A stretch of DNA of 32,000 bases from Crocosphaera subtropica ATCC 51142 (GCF_000017845.1 NC_010546.1:1-32000), one strand, 5' to 3'. Positions 2,458 to 13,660 are shown, counted from the stretch's first letter. Program-made: numbers and translations. The notes: generated by a model from the letters alone, not told the origin.

Positions 2458-5400
2458 TCACCCTGTCGTGTCTTGGTTAACCGACACTAAAGGTTTGTTT
2501 CCCTGAAAGTTTTTTGTCTGGTTAGCTGGGGGAGATTTGGGCATCAACCACTTGCCAAATTGGGCGTAAAGTGCAGGAATTACCAGTAAAGTTAAAGCTG
2601 TAGAAGTAAATAAACCCCCTAACACCACAATCGCTAAAGGTTGCAAAATTTCATTACCAGCACCCGAAGCAACGGCTAACGGTAACATTCCCAAAGCTGA
2701 GGTTAAAGCGGTCATTAAAATGGCATTCACTCGGTCAAGAGAACCCTTAACAATGACATCTTTCAGTTTCATTCCTTGTGCAAACTTGTTATTATAATTA
2801 TCTACCAGTAATAAACCATTACGAACCGCTACCCCAAATAAGGTAATAAAGCCAATTAAAGAGGCAATAGACATCACTCCACCACTGAAAATGATGGAAA
2901 CAATACCCCCTACTAAAGCTAAGGGTAAATTAATCATAATGGCGATAGTAGCAGGAAAAGATTTGACCGAGAAGAACATCAAAATGGTGATAATAATGGC
3001 CGCTAAAATACTGTACACCAAGAGATTATTTGTTGCATTTTGTTCCGCTTCAAACTGACCTCCATATTGAACAAAATATCCTTTGGGTAACTGTACCTGT
3101 TGACGAATAGTTTCTTGAATATCTGCCACCACACTGCCTAAGTCCCTTTCTGCTACATTCGCAGACACCACAATTAAACGGGAAACATCTTCACGGTTGA
3201 CTACATTTGCCCCCATACCATAGGTTACCTTAGCCACAGCACTCAGGGGAATCATTTGACCTGTGGGGGTAGAAATAGGAATAGAACGAATAGCATCTAA
3301 ATTATTGCGTTTTGAAGGGTCTAAACCGACCGTAATATCAATTAATTGCTGATTATCGGGTATTTGAGCAACCACTTGACCATTTAATGCTGTTTCCACC
3401 ACCTCAGAAATGCCTTGCATGGTTAACCCATAATTGGCTGCTGCGCTGCGATCATACTGTATTTGCACTTGACGGATGGGTAATTGAGGTTCAAGCTGTA
3501 AATCGACAATACCTTCTATGGGTTCAATAGCATCTCGTACCTGTTCCCCCACCTGACGCAGTTCAATTAAGTCAGGTCCAAAAATCTTAATAGCGATCGC
3601 ACTTCTAACCCCCGATAACACTTCATCCATGCGATGGGAAATAAACCCCCCAATATTGGGAGCTACCCCAGGCAACTCTAAAAACGCTTCCCGTAGCTGT
3701 TTAACGCTGTTTTCACGGTCTTTGAGAGCAAGATCACTCAATTCTACATCCACATGAGCCATACTCACTCCTGCCCCGTCTGCATCCCCTGGCGCGCGTC
3801 CAGCCCTTACCTGTACCCATTCATACAAAGGATTATCTTTGAGGGAGTTATAAAGAGCCATTCCTGCACGGTTGGTCATGTCTAGAGATACCCCAGGAAA
3901 TAACACCATTGAGTTAACCATTGATTTTTCTTGAAATTCTGGTAAAAATACCCGTCCTAAACTGGGAACAATGGCAAAGGTAGCAATTAAAGCAGCCAAA
4001 GCGCAACAGAGAATAATTTTCGGCAATTTTAACGATAAATTGAGTAAAGGACGATAATGCTTGATAACGAAACGAGAAATGAATGTGCCATCTGGGGGCA
4101 AAGTTTGATTGGCTAATAAAATAGCACACAACGCAGGAGAAACAGTCATCGCTACTAAGGTAGAGGCAGCAATAGACAATAAATAAGCCAACCCCATCGG
4201 GGCAAAAATTCGCCCTTCTACCCCCGTTAAACTAAAAATAGGGGCAAACACCACAATAATAATCACGGTGGAAAAAATTACCGCCAGTCTAACCTCAACG
4301 GAGGTGTCATAGACCACTTGAAAAGGATGTTTTGGGTTGTCCTGTGCTTGGTTGTTGCGGAGTCCCCTGTAACAGTTTTCCATATCCACAATGGAATCAT
4401 CCACCACTGAACCAATGGCTACCACTAACCCCCCTAGAGTCATGGTATTGATGCCTAAACCAAAGGCTTTCATAAACAATAAACCAATGATTAAAGACAG
4501 GGGAATGGCACTAAGGGTGATCATCGCAGTGCGCCAGTTCATCAAAAATAACAACATGATCACCGAAACGATAATGATCCCTTGAATGAGAGAACCACTG
4601 ACATTGCGAATAGCAGCATCAATAAAATTAGCTTGACGAAAGGTTCTGGCAATGTTTACATCTGCTGGAAAGGTAGTCTCTAAAGAGGCGATGACTGTTT
4701 CAACGGCTTTCGTAACTGTGGGGGTATCCACATCAGGCTGTTTATTAATCATCATTACCACCGCAGGTTGCCCATTAAAACTACCATCTCCCCGTTTTAA
4801 TGCCGATCCGGTTTGCACTGTTGCCACATCTTTGAGCAAAATGGGTTCACCGTCTTTAACTTTAACTACGGATGTTTGTAAGTCTTCAATGGTTTGGACT
4901 TTTCCTATTCCACGAATTAATAATTCTTGGCCGCCTCCAATGAGAAAACCGCCAGGAGCGTTAGAATTCGATCCTTTGGCTGCTTCGGTAACATCTGTGA
5001 GAGAAACATTAAGCGATCGCAATTTTTCGGGGTCAACTAAAACCTGTTCTTGTCGTTCATCTCCCCCATATACCGTGACTTGAGAAACCCCTGGAACCGA
5101 GAGAATTTGATTACTGACCGTTCCTTCTACCAAGCGACGCAACTCCATGAGAGAGGTTTGTCCGTTGACAGTAAAAGCGTATTGTAAAATGGTGCCTAAT
5201 GGAGAGACTAACGGCGAAATTTCAGGAGCATGGGCATTTTCGGGGAATTGACCACTAATTTGTTGTAGTCGTTCGGTCACTGCTTGTCGGGCTTTGTAAA
5301 TGTCGGCATTTTGGTCAAATACTACTTGTACCATCGATAACCCAACCTTTGAGGAGGATCTCACCGTGGTTACGCCTGGTAAGCCATTGACTGCGCTTTC

Positions 5401-7717: not shown

Positions 7718-8119
7718 TTACATTTGTGTCAAAACGATTGGTAAATACTGACTAAAGTTAATAAAATCTTTGTCTGTTGTAAAAATTTCATAATTTCTAC
7801 GATTTGCCGTTGCACAAATCAAAAAGTCTGTGTTTGATCCTTGAATACCATGACGACGACAAATATTAAAATACTATGCTGCTATTTCATAGTCTTCCGT
7901 ATCTGTTAATAAATTAGGGAAAGCTTGAAGATTATTCCTCAATTTTTCAAACTGTTCTCGGTGTTTAATACCCGAAAGAATTTCCTGTCTAACTGTTCCT
8001 AAAAGAAGAACTCGACCATCAGTAATTAAATCTCTCAATGTTTGAGTTATGACATCGTTAGTTTGTTGTCTTTTTCTGAATGCTAACGACCAAATACAAG
8101 TATCAACAATGACTTTCAT
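7718..8119 (-). pseudogene. vapC: VapC PIN-domain toxin interrupted by an in-frame TAG
   Basis: Track ORF 7874..8119 (MKVIVDTCIW...EDYEIAA) stops at TAG 7874-7876. The same frame continues YFNICRRHGIQGSNTDFLICATANRRNYEIFTTDKDFINFSQYLPIVLTQM to TAA 7718-7720. That continuation is the conserved PIN C-terminal half, including the TTDKDF acidic motif. Confidence 0.8.
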
Positions 8120-8316
8120 GATTGATTACGTTGTTGTTTGTAGTCATAGTCATCTTCGTATTCAATTGTGCCAAATAATTCGGTAATTTCTAGTTGTTTT
8201 CGTCGTTGAACATACTCTTTTAAAGCTGCTTCAACTACTTCACGTTTAGTGCTATGTCCACCGATTTTTAATGCTTCTTGAATTAATTGGTCGTCAATCT
8301 CTAAATTGGTCGCCAT
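8116..8316 (-). CDS. vapB: VapB-family antitoxin (DUF2191-like, 66 aa)
   Basis: MATNLEIDDQLIQEALKIGGHSTKREVVEAALKEYV is the canonical VapB/DUF2191 N-terminus. There is a 4-bp ATGA overlap with vapC. Confidence 0.8.
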   Translation of the reverse strand: MATNLEIDDQLIQEALKIGGHSTKREVVEAALKEYVQRRKQLEITELFGTIEYEDDYDYKQQRNQS

Positions 8317-8423: not shown

Positions 8424-8759
8424 TTAATCCACCGCAAATTCTGTATATTCTCTAACTAAAGGTTCATGAAAAGCTAAGACAATATCTTGTTTAGGAACAC
8501 CTAAATTAACTAATTCATTAGCAATTCCGATCTCAGTTCCATCATGTTGTATCCAAATTTTATCATTTTTAATATCTAGGTGTAAAACACAACCATAAAC
8601 GGATTGACGATTTTTCCACCCCGTATAGACCACTTGATAATGATCTCGTTCTCTATCAAAAATTAGTTCTGTTTCTATGTCTTCATCTGAGGGACTCCCC
8701 TGAGCATATTCTGTTAATAACTGTTGAATATAAAGGCGATACTCTGCTATTTTTTCCAT
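8424..8759 (-). CDS. xisI: XisI family protein (111 aa)
   Basis: YRLYIQQLLTEYA...DRERDHYQVVYTGW...HLDIKNDKIWIQHDGTEIGIANELVNLGVPKQDIVLAFH is the typical XisI sequence. Confidence 0.9.
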   Translation of the reverse strand: MEKIAEYRLYIQQLLTEYAQGSPSDEDIETELIFDRERDHYQVVYTGWKNRQSVYGCVLHLDIKNDKIWIQHDGTEIGIANELVNLGVPKQDIVLAFHEPLVREYTEFAVD

Positions 8760-9163
8760 TGTAAAATGACCTCCTTTGTCGGATCATAAATTAGTAAGCT
8801 CAGTTAAAAACGCTCAATGATCATTTCCACAAAGGGAAGACTAAAAAATGTTTGATAAACCCCTTGTGGAATCGCTAAATAGAGAAAACGCTCAGGTTGT
8901 TTGTTTTCCAAAGCAACTCGATAGTTAAGAAATTGACCGAGTGCTGTATGAAATTCCGAAATGTTTGATGTTCCGACAAAACTTTTAATTTCTACGGCAA
9001 TTTTTTCTCCGTCTTTTTCGGCGGCAATCATTCTCTCTGTACCGAGATCAATTTGCATATCCACCCGACCAACACGAATTCTTAAAGGGTCATCTGTAAT
9101 GCTCCAACCCTCTTTTTCTAATCCTTTTCTCACCGCATGATGAAAGATATCTTTAGCAGACAT
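8747..9163 (-). pseudogene. xisH: XisH family protein with an in-frame TAA 19 codons before the ancestral stop
   Basis: Track ORF 8804..9163 (MSAKDIFHHAVRKGLEKEGWSITDDPL...) ends at TAA 8804-8806. The same frame continues LSLLIYDPTKEVILQWKK to TAG 8747-8749, which is the conserved XisH C-terminus and overlaps the xisI start as in intact pairs. Confidence 0.8.
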
Positions 9164-9321: not shown

Positions 9322-10008
9322 ATGCGAATACTCCTAGTAGAAGACGAAGAAGACTTAGGACTAGCCATAAAACAGGTTTTAGTTAGTGAAAAGTATATTG
9401 TTGATTGGGTTGTGGATGGCGTAGAAGCGTGGCACTATTTAGACAATCAATGGACAGATTACAGTGTAGCGATTATTGATTGGTTGTTACCGAAACTGTC
9501 AGGGTTAGAATTATGTCAACGATTGAGATCCCATCAAAACCCCTTACCTGTGTTGATGTTAACTGCTTTGGGACAACCAGAAAACCGGATTACTGGTTTA
9601 GATGCAGGGGCCGATGATTACCTCGTCAAACCCTTTATAATGGAGGAGTTACTGGCACGTTTACGGGCATTACAAAGGCGATCACCCCAATTTCAACCCC
9701 AAACCCTAAGCATCGGTCAATTTAGTCTAGATGACGCAAATAACGCCCTCTGTGTCAACGTTACCCAACCCCCTCAAACCATTCCCTTAACCGTCAAAGA
9801 ATTTCAGATTTTTGCTTATTTGATGAAACATCCCGATCGCATTATTTCGGGGAGTAAAATTCGCAATCAATTATGGGATCTCGATGCTGAACCCATGAGT
9901 AATGTAGTTGCGGCACAAATGCGCTTAATTAGACGAAAATTAGCTAGTTATAATTGTATTTGTCCCATTGAAACCATCCGAGGTCAAGGGTATCGTTTTA
10001 ATAGTTGA
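9322..10008 (+). CDS. OmpR/PhoB-family response regulator (228 aa)
   Basis: Receiver domain (ILLVEDEEDL, IIDWLLP, LMLTA, LVKPF) plus a winged-helix output (LTVKEFQIFAYLM...IETIRGQGYRF). Confidence 0.93.
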   Translation: MRILLVEDEEDLGLAIKQVLVSEKYIVDWVVDGVEAWHYLDNQWTDYSVAIIDWLLPKLSGLELCQRLRSHQNPLPVLMLTALGQPENRITGLDAGADDYLVKPFIMEELLARLRALQRRSPQFQPQTLSIGQFSLDDANNALCVNVTQPPQTIPLTVKEFQIFAYLMKHPDRIISGSKIRNQLWDLDAEPMSNVVAAQMRLIRRKLASYNCICPIETIRGQGYRFNS

Positions 10009-10050
10009 TATCTAACATGATCAAGATAGTGATTAAACTCAGATTGGTGT

Positions 10051-10063
10051 TGACTAATAGTCA
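10051..10063 (+). promoter_or_regulatory. Single C-box-like palindrome overlapping a -35-like hexamer of the methyltransferase gene
   Basis: TGACT-AAT-AGTCA is a perfect palindrome apart from the centre. TTGACT (10050-10055) is followed about 18 nt later by TAACAT, and it lies 62-74 nt upstream of the ATG at 10125. Confidence 0.5.
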
Positions 10064-10124
10064 CATCTTGATTTAACATTTAAATTCAACAAAACATTTT
10101 GTTTTGATTAAGCTTGTACAATCT

Positions 10125-11072
10125 ATGGATCAACAAAAACAACCGAAAAAAAAGACCAATTCGCCATTTCGTTATCCAGGGGGAAAATTTTATGCTAGAA
10201 AATTGATCTTAGCTTCTCTTCCTGAACATGATAGTTATTGTGAACCATTTGCAGGGGGAGCTTCGATATTTTTTGCCAAGCCAACGGTCAAAAATAATAT
10301 TCTGAATGATAAAGACGAGGATTTGGTTAACTGCTATATTTCGATTAGAGATCATGTCGAAAAACTCATTTCATTACTAGATGGAATTCCTGCCAAAAAA
10401 GAATTACACAGTTATTATAAAAATGAATTTCAACCTCAAAATGATTTAGAACGTGCAATGAGGTGGTATTACTTAAATAGAACTTCTTATTCAGGAATTA
10501 TGAAACCTCAGAATTGTTATTGGGGTTATGGAGATAAATACTCTATGCGCCCTGAAAACTGGCCATATCATTTAAGAACTACATCAGAAAGATTGCAAGG
10601 AGTAGATATTTACTGTCTTGATTTTGAGGAGCTAATTGGTTCTTTATCAGATGGCTACTTTCTATTTATAGATCCTCCGTATTTTAATGCAGATCAAGAT
10701 AAATTTTATACTTGTTCATTTACCACAGAGGATCATCAAAGATTATGCTCACTGTTACAAAAAAATAAATCTAAATATAATTTTCTCATTACTTATGATA
10801 ATAGTCCAGAAATAAAAGAAATGTACAATTGGTGTGTTTCTGTACAAGATAATCAATGGAATTATACAATTAATCGTACAGATGATCAGCAAAATAGTAG
10901 AAATTTAGGGGATGGTTATAAAGGTTCAAGATATAAAGGAAGAGAATTATTTATTACTAACTATGATATTAATTCTGTGGTAGGAATTACCCCTTTAAAT
11001 TTAGATCAACAAGGAACAAAAATAAATTCAACAGAAAATAGATATTTACAATTGAGTCTTTTTGAAAATTGA
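10125..11072 (+). CDS. Dam-family (D12 class) N6-adenine DNA methyltransferase (315 aa)
   Basis: FRYPGGK, EPFAGGASIFF (AdoMet motif I) and IDPPYF (motif IV) occur in the alpha-class order. The track start at 10104 is TTG; the first ATG is at 10125. Confidence 0.9.
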   Translation: MDQQKQPKKKTNSPFRYPGGKFYARKLILASLPEHDSYCEPFAGGASIFFAKPTVKNNILNDKDEDLVNCYISIRDHVEKLISLLDGIPAKKELHSYYKNEFQPQNDLERAMRWYYLNRTSYSGIMKPQNCYWGYGDKYSMRPENWPYHLRTTSERLQGVDIYCLDFEELIGSLSDGYFLFIDPPYFNADQDKFYTCSFTTEDHQRLCSLLQKNKSKYNFLITYDNSPEIKEMYNWCVSVQDNQWNYTINRTDDQQNSRNLGDGYKGSRYKGRELFITNYDINSVVGITPLNLDQQGTKINSTENRYLQLSLFEN

Positions 11073-11086
11073 ATTTTGTCTTTATT

Positions 11087-12154
11087 TTAGTATAACAAAC
11101 TTTCTAGATTTTCTAATTTTACCCAAGGACTTAGAGGTTCTCCAGTCTGAGGATCAAAATAAATAACAGGATAATTAGGAATGAAATGACAGTATTTCAT
11201 GTTTAAGTTTTTCAAAACCTCTGGACAAGTTCTATGATAAAGATCATTTCCTTGAGCATCTTTTTTTCCTGTTTTTCTTTTTTTTGTTCTCGTACATTTA
11301 ATAACCTTTTGTCCTGTTTTATTTGAGCCATTTACTGATAATTGATCACTTCTAGCTATATATATCTTATAAAATGCTTCATCTTGAGTAGTAGCATTAA
11401 TTTTAGTTAAAAAATCTTTTGCTTCTTCTGGAGGACACCAATAAAAAAGACCTTGCTCATCTGTTTCATAAAAAGCATTAGCAATTGAAGTAACAACTAG
11501 ATCAAAATCTTGAATAACGTACTGATCATTATGTATCATTAATAACTCAAAATCAAGATTAGTTCTTTTTGCTTTTTGTCGTGCTGCTGTTTCTCCCAAA
11601 GTTCTTGATCTCATACATTTAACTTTGATTCTAGGAATATTATTATCCAGTTTGAATTCACCTTTAGCAGCTAATTTACATTCTGCTGAATAAATTTTGT
11701 CCTGTTCTTGATCATATATAGCAACATCAACATCTTCTAATCCAGTTTGAGCATTGATTTTAGGATTACTTATTTGATATCTTGCGCTAGGTAGAATGTT
11801 AGAAATAAGTGTTTTGATTGTAAATTCAAAAGCTTTTCCCCTAATCATGGGAATAACTTTTGGATCATTTAAAACATCCGCTAGATTTTCCATATCTATG
11901 TTATATTTATGACAAAAATTCTGTAAATTTTCTTGCCATTCGGGGATTAATATTAATTCATTAAGGTTAATATTTAAGGCTTCAGCTAGAGACTTTATAC
12001 AAATAAGGGATGGATTCCTTTTTCCTCGTTCTAACAAACTTATATAAGTTCGATCAACATTGATAATTTCGGCAAGCTGCTCTTGTGATAAATTCTGAAT
12101 GAGTCTCCATTTTTGTAATTTTTGTCCAAATTGTCTGAGAATTTCATCTTTCAT
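11087..12154 (-). CDS. XRE/controller-type HTH fused to a PD-(D/E)XK nuclease; probable type II restriction endonuclease (355 aa)
   Basis: The N-terminus (QEQLAEIINVDRTYISLLERGKRNPSLICIKSLAEAL) is a classic HTH_3 domain. The body carries EDVDVAIYD...IYSAECKLA, a D...(D/E)XK pattern. It is convergent with the methyltransferase, with 14 bp between the stops. The track start at 12172 is TTG; the ATG is at 12152-12154. Confidence 0.72.
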   Translation of the reverse strand: MKDEILRQFGQKLQKWRLIQNLSQEQLAEIINVDRTYISLLERGKRNPSLICIKSLAEALNINLNELILIPEWQENLQNFCHKYNIDMENLADVLNDPKVIPMIRGKAFEFTIKTLISNILPSARYQISNPKINAQTGLEDVDVAIYDQEQDKIYSAECKLAAKGEFKLDNNIPRIKVKCMRSRTLGETAARQKAKRTNLDFELLMIHNDQYVIQDFDLVVTSIANAFYETDEQGLFYWCPPEEAKDFLTKINATTQDEAFYKIYIARSDQLSVNGSNKTGQKVIKCTRTKKRKTGKKDAQGNDLYHRTCPEVLKNLNMKYCHFIPNYPVIYFDPQTGEPLSPWVKLENLESLLY

Positions 12155-12246
12155 GGAGAGTTTGCTCGGCAAATATAAATTATTGAGTGTTTTCAGTTTT
12201 ATTGGCTATATTTACTTATAGTCATTTTTCATCATTAAGCTTTTGT

Positions 12247-12272
12247 TACTCACAGTCCACAGACTGACAGTC
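12247..12272 (-). promoter_or_regulatory. Bipartite C-box-like operator upstream of the HTH-nuclease gene
   Basis: The minus strand reads GACTGTCAGTC-TGTG-GACTGTGAGTA, two GACT-N3-AGT(C/A) palindromes with a TGTG spacer. It lies 93-118 nt upstream of the nuclease ATG and 36-61 nt upstream of the kinase ATG on the other strand. Confidence 0.6.
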
Positions 12273-12307
12273 ACTTTTTGCTCTCTTACATTATTTTTTG
12301 AATAAAA

Positions 12308-13660
12308 ATGAAAACCTCTCAATTATTCCGTCATAGTCGTCTCAGGTTAGCTGTTTGGTACACTTTGGTAATGGGAGTGATTTTAAGTGTATCAGGGTTA
12401 GGAATTTATCGATCTTTAGTTCAGTCTAATTGGAAGGCAATGGAGAGGGAAATAGAATCAATTGCAGGAACCCTTCATGACAGTTTAGAACCGATGTTAC
12501 CCCCTTCAGAGAACCCGACAACGGTATTAAAGGGTATTTTGCCAGAATTGTGTTTAGTGGGACAAACTTGTCATTCTAATCCGAGTTTAATCGAAAGACA
12601 TACCATCGGAATTAGCGATCGCAATACTTACTATATTCGTCTATTTAATCATCAAAGGAAACTGTTAGCTTTTTCCCCTAATCAACCTGATAATTTATCT
12701 CAAACTTTAAACCCTGAACCCTGGCAAACTATTAAAAGTAATGGCATTCGTTATCATCAATTTACGATTATTTTACACAGTTCTGATACCCATGATTTAG
12801 GGATTAATTCTTCTTGGGGTTATTTACAACTAGGACGTAATTTAAAACCCTTTGATGCTGAAGTGAAACGTCTACAAGTCATTTTCATTCTTGGGTTTCC
12901 CTTCGTTTTAGGGTTAGTCGTGATATCAAGTTGGTGGCTTTCCGGGTTAGCCATGCAGCCCATTTATCAATCATACCAACAACAACAACAGTTTACCGCT
13001 AATGCAGCCCATGAACTGCGATCGCCTTTGGCCAGTCTTTTAGCTACCATCGAAGCCATTTTAAGAATACCTCCTTCACAACCCCAAGATTTAAACAAAA
13101 TGCTACATACCTTAGAAAGACAGGGAAGACGGTTAAGTTATTTAGTCACAGATTTATTATTGTTAACTAGTCTTGAAGGACAATCATCGTCTAAAGGGTT
13201 TCAATCTTGTTGTTTAAATGATTTAGTTAGTGATTTGATCGAAGAATTTTCAGAACTTGCTACAGTCGCTAATATTGATCTTATTGAACAAATTCCTGAT
13301 GAGGAAATTGATGTTTTAGGAGACGAATCTCAACTGTATCGTTTAGTATCCAATTTAATGGCTAATGCTATTCAATATACACCTAATGGTGGTGAAGTTG
13401 TTGTAAGTTTAAAGACCAAAGAAAACATGGCATTGATTACAATAAAAGATACAAGGATCGGGATTTCTAGAGAAGAACAAAAACGAATTTTTGAGCGATT
13501 TTACCGTGTGGATAGTGATCGAAATCGAAAAACGGGAGGAACCGGATTAGGATTAGCCATTGCCCAAGCGATCGCCCATCATCATCAGGGTTATATTACT
13601 ATTCAAAGTCAACTGGGTAAAGGTAGTTTATTCACGATTTATCTACCGAGGGCAAAATAA
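12308..13660 (+). CDS. Sensor histidine kinase (2 TM, periplasmic loop, HisKA + HATPase_c; 450 aa)
   Basis: H-box ANAAHELRSPLASL, N-box LVSNLMANAIQYT, G2 GGTGLGLAIA. The G1 box reads DTRIG instead of DxGxG. Confidence 0.92.
   Translation: MKTSQLFRHSRLRLAVWYTLVMGVILSVSGLGIYRSLVQSNWKAMEREIESIAGTLHDSLEPMLPPSENPTTVLKGILPELCLVGQTCHSNPSLIERHTIGISDRNTYYIRLFNHQRKLLAFSPNQPDNLSQTLNPEPWQTIKSNGIRYHQFTIILHSSDTHDLGINSSWGYLQLGRNLKPFDAEVKRLQVIFILGFPFVLGLVVISSWWLSGLAMQPIYQSYQQQQQFTANAAHELRSPLASLLATIEAILRIPPSQPQDLNKMLHTLERQGRRLSYLVTDLLLLTSLEGQSSSKGFQSCCLNDLVSDLIEEFSELATVANIDLIEQIPDEEIDVLGDESQLYRLVSNLMANAIQYTPNGGEVVVSLKTKENMALITIKDTRIGISREEQKRIFERFYRVDSDRNRKTGGTGLGLAIAQAIAHHHQGYITIQSQLGKGSLFTIYLPRAK

Follow-up and report, generated by a model that had tools for sequence, protein, structure and literature searches.

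Fusions of a controller (C) protein to a restriction endonuclease (REase) have been known since 2013, when CR.NsoJS138I was found to act as both REase and C protein and descriptions of four others, three from cyanobacteria, appeared (PMC3850674); C-REase fusions were restated in a 2025 review (PMC12707154). Only one of them has been tested experimentally, and the question it poses is whether the C and REase parts dimerise competitively or simultaneously. We analysed a 32,000-nucleotide stretch of the Crocosphaera subtropica (Cyanothece) ATCC 51142 genome (GCF_000017845.1, NC_010546.1:1-32000; hereafter the window), in which the convergently transcribed genes cce_0014 and cce_0015 encode an adenine methyltransferase and a C domain joined to a nuclease. 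We conclude that this region is probably a mobile type II restriction-modification (R-M) cassette whose C gene has been fused to the nuclease gene and whose regulatory circuit resembles those of PvuII and Esp1396I. A first-pass annotation of the same DNA had noticed the fusion but knew of no characterised example; CR.NsoJS138I is such an example, and the locus described here is a further one. What is new is the different nuclease family, the repeated occurrence of fusion within one family, and a displaced leader with three operators. A literature search found no published work specific to R-M systems of Cyanothece 51142.

Like CR.NsoJS138I, CR.Mru1279I, Asp90I, Gsp7428I and Oni7112I (PMC3850674), the cce_0015 product carries its C domain at the N-terminus of a type II REase, and its gene is preceded by PvuII-type C-boxes. 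Those fusions, like the family of the window protein, apparently arose more than once, and some of them are encoded convergently with their methylase (M). However, their REase is an orthologue of R.PvuII that is paired with a PvuII-type methylase, whereas the window encodes an unrelated nuclease and a Dam-family N6-methyladenine (m6A) methylase; no match between the window nuclease and PvuII was found in sequence and profile searches of the Protein Data Bank (PDB) or among the 50 Foldseek matches listed. The three-box layout of the window clade is likewise undescribed for these fusions. Esp1396I (Bogdanova et al. 2009, PMC2691842; PMC3488213) shares with the window convergent C-R and M genes, a pair of operators (OL and OR) in front of C-R, and a single, more symmetrical operator (OM) in front of M, but its C and R genes are separate, it has no third operator, and its nuclease and methylase belong to other families. 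PvuII (PMC2175313) has in common with the window the C-box consensus with its central GT, an OR that lies over the -35 hexamer, and a DRTY recognition helix with an xGTG spacer. An R-M enzyme with its own autoregulating N-terminal helix-turn-helix (HTH) is also known from the M.SsoII/M.Ecl18kI type (PMC2760811), where the HTH sits on the methylase; in the window it sits on the nuclease.

The fusion gene cce_0015 occupies 11087-12154 on the minus strand as an intact open reading frame (ORF) of 355 codons plus stop, and its product is 100% identical to P0001. Residues 1-70 (11945-12154, minus strand) make up a five-helix HTH of XRE type. The first-pass annotation had taken these ~70 residues to be controller-like, and comparison with C proteins confirmed this: the N-terminus matched HTH_3 (E 7.7e-14), PADLOC Control_protein models matched residues 5-68 (E 1.2e-16), and the best PDB sequence matches were C.BclI (E 2.9e-10) and C.AhdI (E 4.3e-10), followed by C.Esp1396I (E 8.8e-5), with the best non-controller matches four orders of magnitude weaker than C.BclI. 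The structures of C.BclI (2b5a) and C.AhdI (1y7y) are the closest solved structures, at 43-48% identity, although these are free-standing proteins of 74-77 amino acids and the window C domain is fused to R. In an AlphaFold2 (AF2) model of the whole fusion protein (mean predicted local distance difference test score, pLDDT, 89.5), the C domain superimposed on C.BclI and C.AhdI with a root-mean-square deviation of 0.6-1.5 Å, and the Foldseek TM-score normalised to the C protein was 0.83-0.91. In C.Esp1396I-DNA structures, R35, T36 and R46 read GAC/GTC, while R17, Q24, S39 and R43 hold the backbone (PMC3488213); the window protein has the same amino acid at each of these seven positions, including the three read-out residues, with the same numbering (3clc alignment). 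The recognition helix is of the DRTY type, which Mruk et al. associated with xGTG spacers (PMC2175313), and the spacer in the window is TGTG. The N-terminal domain is thus a genuine R-M controller domain. An in-frame TTG at 12172 was considered as the start of the protein and rejected; homologues align from MKD- at 12154.

By sequence, residues 76-355 (11090-11929, minus strand) are a member of a type II restriction-enzyme family: residues 75-289 matched the PADLOC REase_II model PDLC03516 with E 2.7e-60. Neither Pfam nor NCBIfam holds a model of this nuclease family, and the PDB sequence and profile searches that matched the HTH domain gave no match for the nuclease domain. The PD-(D/E)XK-like signature previously read from the ORF (EDVDVAIYD...SAECKLA) is present and holds the putative catalytic motif D143 ... 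E158-C-K160 (11675-11728, minus strand). Across 25 homologues, D143 and E158 do not vary; conservation is at least 90% for K160, and likewise for the segments PKVIPMIRGK, KCMRSRTLG, HNDQY and FIPNYP and three cysteines. AF2 models place D143 at the start of a beta-strand and E158-C-K160 within the next strand, which is the PD-(D/E)XK arrangement. A Foldseek search with the full-length model was dominated by the HTH; with a nuclease-only model (pLDDT 90.7), all matches were weak, the top ones being PD-(D/E)XK enzymes, namely I-Ssp6803I, then SwaI, HinP1I, Hjc and PA endonuclease. The models therefore make a PD-(D/E)XK fold likely for the nuclease body.

We next consider the operators of the fusion gene. 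The published C-box consensus is GACT-N3-AGTC-N4-GACT-N3-AGTC with a 4-nt spacer whose central GT is highly conserved (Mruk et al. 2007, PMC2175313). On the minus strand at 12274-12245, the window contains GTGACTGTCAGTC-TGTG-GACTGTGAGTAAC, which agrees with this consensus at 15 of the 16 symmetric positions and has the central GT in its spacer. The first-pass annotation had identified this double palindrome around TGTG as an operator of the PvuII/Esp1396I type; the identification stands, although the element lies 91-120 nt, and not 93-118 nt, upstream of the ATG at 12154. C-box 1 (OL-like; 12262-12272, minus strand) is a perfect palindrome, GACTGTCAGTC, and C-box 2 (OR-like; 12247-12257, minus strand) is the imperfect GACTGTGAGTA, whose left half forms, together with the spacer, a -35-like TGGACT (12259-12254). 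A search with the 25-nt composite C-box pattern gave a single site without mismatch in the window, compared with a mean of 0.09 hits in shuffled sequences, and with up to two mismatches allowed the sole further hit was the same site on the opposite strand. The motif GACT-N3-AGT, GACTNNNAGT, occurs at four places in the 32 kb, all four of them within the two promoters of the cassette. Its raw count of 6 strand-matches, against 2.5 expected, was reached or exceeded in 9 of 100 shuffles and is not significant alone; the argument rests on clustering and on conservation in relatives.

We scanned one genome per species for the nuclease, which yielded 80 loci, and looking up proteins added further fused relatives, namely L001 (C. 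aponinum), L085 (Rippkaea PCC 8801) and, from metagenomes, L083 and L084. Two types of operator exist in the family, the GACT type seen in the window and TGCTAACTATAGTATGTAGAACTAAAGTTAGCA. In all 15 GACT-type loci box 1 is a perfect palindrome followed by a 4-nt spacer, and the geometry of box 2 is unchanged; the same boxes are found at the same spacing although the surrounding intergenic DNA has diverged. Of these 15 loci, 14 have an A/T-rich -10-like hexamer at a distance of 21-22 nt from where box 2 starts, the exception being the unfused sister locus L087 (GCAAAC). In the window this hexamer is AATGAT (12231-12236, minus strand), 21 nt from the start of box 2, and we take it as the -10 of a presumed C-dependent promoter, P1. 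In canonical loci the ATG is 33-37 nt from box 2 and 6-10 nt past the -10-like hexamer, and this layout was observed in fused (L003, L004, L006, L008 and L085) and unfused loci (L005, L007, L015, L018, L059 and L087) alike. The 33-37 nt spacing points to leaderless or near-leaderless mRNA in canonical loci, as in PvuII; leaderless mRNA has been demonstrated experimentally for several other C-R operons (PMC2175313; PMC2691842). Most relatives with a separate C gene (among loci L009-L082, for example L047 at about 3415-3450) have the longer operator TGCTAACTATAGTATGTAGAACTAAAGTTAGCA upstream of that gene. The existence of two operator types indicates that the nuclease-methylase pair has joined with at least two controller/operator types. 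A further pattern, in which fused systems would systematically have a perfect box 2, was suggestive (perfect in L003, L004, L006 and L008; imperfect in L005, L007, L015, L018 and L059) and was rejected; it is contradicted by L087, which is unfused with a perfect box, and by L085, which is fused with an imperfect one, and the loci are not independent.

A second operator lies in front of the methylase gene. The perfect palindrome GACTAATAGTC at 10052-10062, extending to TGACTAATAGTCA at 10051-10063, is a single OM-like site. As the first-pass annotation had noted, the extended palindrome overlaps a TTGACT -35-like hexamer (10050-10055, plus strand), which in a consensus scan is paired with a -10-like TAACAT (10074-10079, plus strand) at 18-nt spacing to give a candidate methylase promoter, PM; the operator would thus cover the PM -35 hexamer and spacer. 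A perfect or one-mismatch equivalent of OM is located upstream of M in six relatives, both fused and unfused (L001, L004, L005, L007, L059 and L087), and the overlapping TTGACT is present in five of these, with TTGATT at that place in L007. Since OM occurs in both fused and unfused systems, it is a feature shared with Esp1396I and is not specific to the fusion. In Esp1396I, the OM site has the highest affinity and represses M (PMC2691842).

On the preferred reading, in which a PvuII/Esp1396I-like circuit controls a fused cassette, regulation might proceed as follows. On entry of the cassette into a cell, the methylase promoter, with its near-consensus -35 TTGACT, would fire, by analogy with PvuII and Esp1396I, while the fusion gene would at first be weakly transcribed. 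As fusion protein accumulated, its C domains would dimerise and bind the perfect OM palindrome over the PM -35 hexamer, turning the methylase down, and C-domain dimers on the perfect distal box 1 would activate P1 of the fusion gene. At higher concentration, dimers would come to occupy box 2, the imperfect site over the -35-like TGGACT, as well as, in the window clade, a third box at about +1 to +11, and occupancy of either would repress transcription. Because regulator and nuclease form one polypeptide at a ratio of 1:1, the steady-state level of the nuclease would be set directly by operator affinities. The first-pass annotation had argued that the timing logic of a fused system must differ from that of systems with separate genes. 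This is not established: the fused loci L003, L004, L006, L008 and L085 have the canonical layout, and OM is found in unfused relatives as well.

The third box is the point at which the window clade departs from the canonical layout and from PvuII. Here a distance of 76-104 nt, and not ~35 nt, separates the start codon from box 2, and C-box 3 (GACTATAAGTA; 12213-12223, minus strand) sits at the would-be leaderless start. The earlier inventory of operators was correct for the double C-box and OM, but it had overlooked this box at 12223-12213. In the window, box 3 begins 7 nt past the P1 -10-like hexamer. It is present at equal spacing in L083 and L001, where it begins 7-8 nt past the corresponding hexamer, is degenerate in L084, and does not occur in any other relative. 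The elongation roadblock of C.Kpn2I (Klimuk et al. 2018, PMC6237814) is a precedent for a C protein that acts downstream of its promoter and not at the -35 hexamer, as we propose for box 3; C.Kpn2I has a different C-box type and promoter layout, and its likeness to box 3 is presumptive. Directly upstream of box 3 (12199-12225, minus strand), at approximately the ancestral leaderless start site, we observed an ATG in the window and a GTG in relatives. This start codon opens a mini-ORF of 7-9 codons in the window (MTISKYSQ, then stop), L001 and L084; in L083 (about 299-373), the GTG shares the frame of the main ORF and no stop codon separates the two. The gene caller predicted an N-terminal extension for P0002 (399 amino acids).

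Box 3 could instead be the activator-type operator of a second, proximal promoter, P2, with the distal pair of boxes being a remnant or an auxiliary tetramer site that acts by looping to box 3. A consensus scan found a candidate promoter with 9 of 12 matching positions directly downstream of box 3 (TAGCCA, 18 nt, AATAAT; 12208-12179, minus strand), and the block CAATAATTTATATTT at this position is common to the window and L083. The -35-like TAGCCA (TAGTCA in L083) starts 5 nt past box 3, reminiscent of the TAGACT that starts 3 nt past box 1 in canonical relatives, and L001 has a perfect TATAAT 8 nt upstream of its ATG. Against this, L001 and the window/L083 pair differ by ~9 bp in the spacing between box 3 and the candidate P2 -10 hexamer, whereas the spacing between box 3 and the P1 -10-like hexamer stays constant at 7-8 nt throughout the four members of the clade. 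This constancy ties box 3 to the presumed P1 geometry, and we regard its use by a proximal promoter as possible but unlikely. That the displaced double C-box and box 3 are an adaptation to the fusion, providing an extra cap by autorepression, is a rather doubtful proposal, and we hold it tentatively, together with two others of the same standing that are taken up below (the use of the family as a test bed for fusion and control of a neighbouring host gene by box 1). If true, box 3 would bring in one more step of autorepression and thereby limit a nuclease whose synthesis is coupled 1:1 to that of its regulator, and the layout of the window clade would echo the C box found far upstream in the unrelated cyanobacterial PvuII-type fusions.

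Several observations weigh against a PvuII/Esp1396I-like circuit acting through the fused protein. OM is degenerate in the closest relative, L083 (TTGACTCATCATCAC), and absent from L003, L006, L008 and L085; repression of the methylase is therefore not universal among the relatives. Promoter positions were taken from consensus geometry, and the scan returned 22 hits against 13.5 expected, many of them by chance. In structure, the nuclease domain matches PD-(D/E)XK enzymes weakly, with E 6.5e-3 for the best, I-Ssp6803I. We infer DNA binding, activation and repression, promoter positions, cleavage and recognition specificity for this cassette. Finally, the linker is only ~2 residues long in the AF2 model, where the C domain ends in a helix at residues 64-68 and the nuclease domain opens with one at 71-83, compared with ~25 amino acids in the cyanobacterial PvuII-type fusions. 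Liang and Blumenthal suggested that short linkers may stop C and REase parts from dimerising simultaneously (PMC3850674). With a linker of ~2 residues, their competitive-dimerisation scenario is relevant to the window protein, and C function in the fusion is not guaranteed.

A short linker that hampers C-type dimerisation would also fit a fusion in which the HTH no longer regulates, either as a decaying remnant or as an extra DNA-binding module of the nuclease, with the boxes as relics, and ~23 relatives function without any C gene. However, dN/dS in the window clade was 0.10-0.18 for the HTH domain, no higher than the 0.13-0.18 of the nuclease domain, so that purifying selection acts on both. 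Within the clade the recognition helix VDRTYISLLERGKRNPSL does not vary, the boxes are conserved amid diverging flanks, and the comparable fusion CR.NsoJS138I kept its C activity (PMC3850674). Loss of regulation by the HTH is hence improbable. We also considered an R-only product made from an internal start and rejected it: the junction contains no in-frame ATG, GTG or TTG, and a product from the first methionine, residue 88, would lose the invariant C81 and Y84.

To place the fusion within its family, we compared gene arrangements across the relatives. As the first-pass annotation had proposed checking, C and R are separate genes elsewhere: approximately 49 of the 80 loci have a separate small HTH/C gene that ends a few bases from the R start, ~23 are C-less, 5 are fused and 3 are at contig ends. 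A close methylase homologue (56-79% identical) is adjacent and convergent to the nuclease gene in 73 of 76 loci from many phyla. The closest unfused relative, L087, encodes a 73-amino-acid C protein that is 62% identical to the N-terminus of the window protein; its boxes are at -50 and -35, it has an OM site, and the TGA of its C gene overlaps the ATG of its nuclease gene (ATTATGA). Relative to the L087 junction (...SELFQEIEL, stop, MNHPEW...), the window (...NELILIPEW...) lacks about six codons. The fusion descends from separate genes, and a short in-frame deletion probably took out the C stop and R start codons, fusing the small C gene to R. In a neighbour-joining tree of nuclease domains from ~120 clusters, which is rough, 26 fused proteins fell into about six or seven clades amid unfused ones, and the HTH type varied between fused clades (DRTYIS versus HRTYIGM). 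The interleaving of fused with unfused clades and their differing HTH types support repeated fusion, and where C stop and R start codons overlap, fusion recurs easily.

The same comparison bears on whether the cassette is an R-M system at all. The HTH weakly matched the antitoxin/repressor families HipB, CapH and RmrA, and one might propose an XRE-nuclease toxin-antitoxin or other defence module beside an orphan Dam methylase; this is highly improbable, given that in 73 of 76 loci, from many phyla, the nuclease gene has a member of this methylase clade as its convergent neighbour and that the strongest family matches are REase_II, Control_protein and MTase_II. Equally, most relatives have separate genes with overlapping stop and start codons that one small lesion could join, but the idea that C and R are truly separate genes, joined here through an error of sequencing or assembly or through a recent pseudogenising mutation in this strain, can be dismissed, since the junction NELI-[LSF]-IPEWQE recurs in sequences 74-87% identical that were obtained independently from other organisms and samples, no in-frame start codon occurs at the junction, and fused forms are found in about six or seven clades of the family. 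In keeping with this, the fused architecture is kept in relatives 74-87% identical from independent samples and organisms, and the four members of the window clade, which come from different sources, are all 355 amino acids long with no indels; the missed stop or frameshift between C and R that the first-pass annotation had allowed for is not there.

The partner gene, cce_0014 (10125-11072, plus strand), encodes a Dam-family (D12 class) N6-adenine DNA methyltransferase, for which the ATG at 10125 is preferred as start to the TTG at 10104. Its product matched PF02086 (E 4e-30) and PADLOC MTase_II (E 3.5e-79), contains IDPPYF (the DPPY motif), and had DpnM and Dam among its PDB matches. As regards the GATC specificity of a true Dam, it scored 114.5 bits against TIGR00571 (dam), with a cut-off of 114.85, and 59 against the E. 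coli Dam equivalog model, with a cut-off of 441. No informative names were found among its methylase homologues. We measured palindrome avoidance on 620 kb of host DNA from 85 loci as a guide to the recognition site: all 6-mer palindromes were depleted and none was outstanding. TTCGAA had the largest avoidance z-score (-8), with an ordinary observed/expected ratio, and TGATCA was not depleted (observed/expected 1.07, pooled site counts), giving no hint of a BclI-like specificity. In the whole 32 kb, AGATCT and ATGCAT are both absent, against 10.3 and 5.1 expected, respectively, as calculated with an order-3 Markov model; their absence points to further R-M specificities in the host and is not attributable to this cassette.

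Further features of the nuclease were observed. A lysine-rich insertion of ~27 amino acids (within TKKRKTGKKDAQGNDLYHRTCPEVLKNLNMKY; residues 288-322, 11189-11293, minus strand) lies between the invariant C287 and C322; it is common to the unfused sister protein P0007 and absent from most homologues. C287, C310 and C322 may form a metal site. A search of plasmids for relatives of the nuclease returned three Acinetobacter "hypothetical proteins". A second PADLOC REase_II model, PDLC03536 (237 positions), matched only residues 20-68, that is the HTH, at the model's own N-terminus; this suggests that PDLC03536 was built from other C-REase fusions, and its length fits a C domain plus a nuclease of PvuII size.

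The cassette fills the gap (10009-12307) between an OmpR-type response regulator gene (rppA-like; 9322-10008, plus strand) and an RppB-type histidine kinase gene (rppB; 12308-13660, plus strand). The same gap holds a DUF433/DUF5615 gene pair in Cyanothece sp. BG0011 (L088, 2590-3500) and Crocosphaera chwakensis (L089, 1981-3500), and because of these pairs it has the look of a site where small selfish cassettes land. The neighbours of the R-M cassette in C. aponinum and Rippkaea differ from those in the window. Immediately upstream of the gene for the response regulator are two pairs of small genes, overlapping or adjacent, on the minus strand; the first (7874-8316) resembles a toxin-antitoxin pair of the VapB/PIN type and the second (8424-9163) resembles XisI/XisH. 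Within the cassette, M and the fusion gene converge with just 14 nt (11073-11086) between their stop codons, and no terminator-like hairpin was found in this interval; the two transcripts probably overlap, which could bring antisense or collision effects into regulation. On the plus strand, C-box 1 overlaps a candidate promoter (CTGACA, 17 nt, TACATT; 12264-12292) just upstream of the rppB ATG at 12308, with 9 of 12 matching positions in a scan prone to chance hits. Control of rppB by box 1 is one of the doubtful proposals named above; if this element drives the kinase gene, a signalling gene of the host could come under repression by the R-M controller.

With this locus, C-REase fusion is seen in a second nuclease family, one that is unrelated to the first and is paired with an m6A methylase. 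Its matched fused, unfused and C-less relatives, together with the three-operator variant, offer a test of how a 1:1 ratio of regulator to nuclease is tolerated, and a family with about six or seven independent fusions would, if that more tentative count of its usefulness holds, be a natural test bed for the competitive-dimerisation model. For the organism itself, cce_0015 and cce_0014 together are a likely barrier to transforming Cyanothece 51142.

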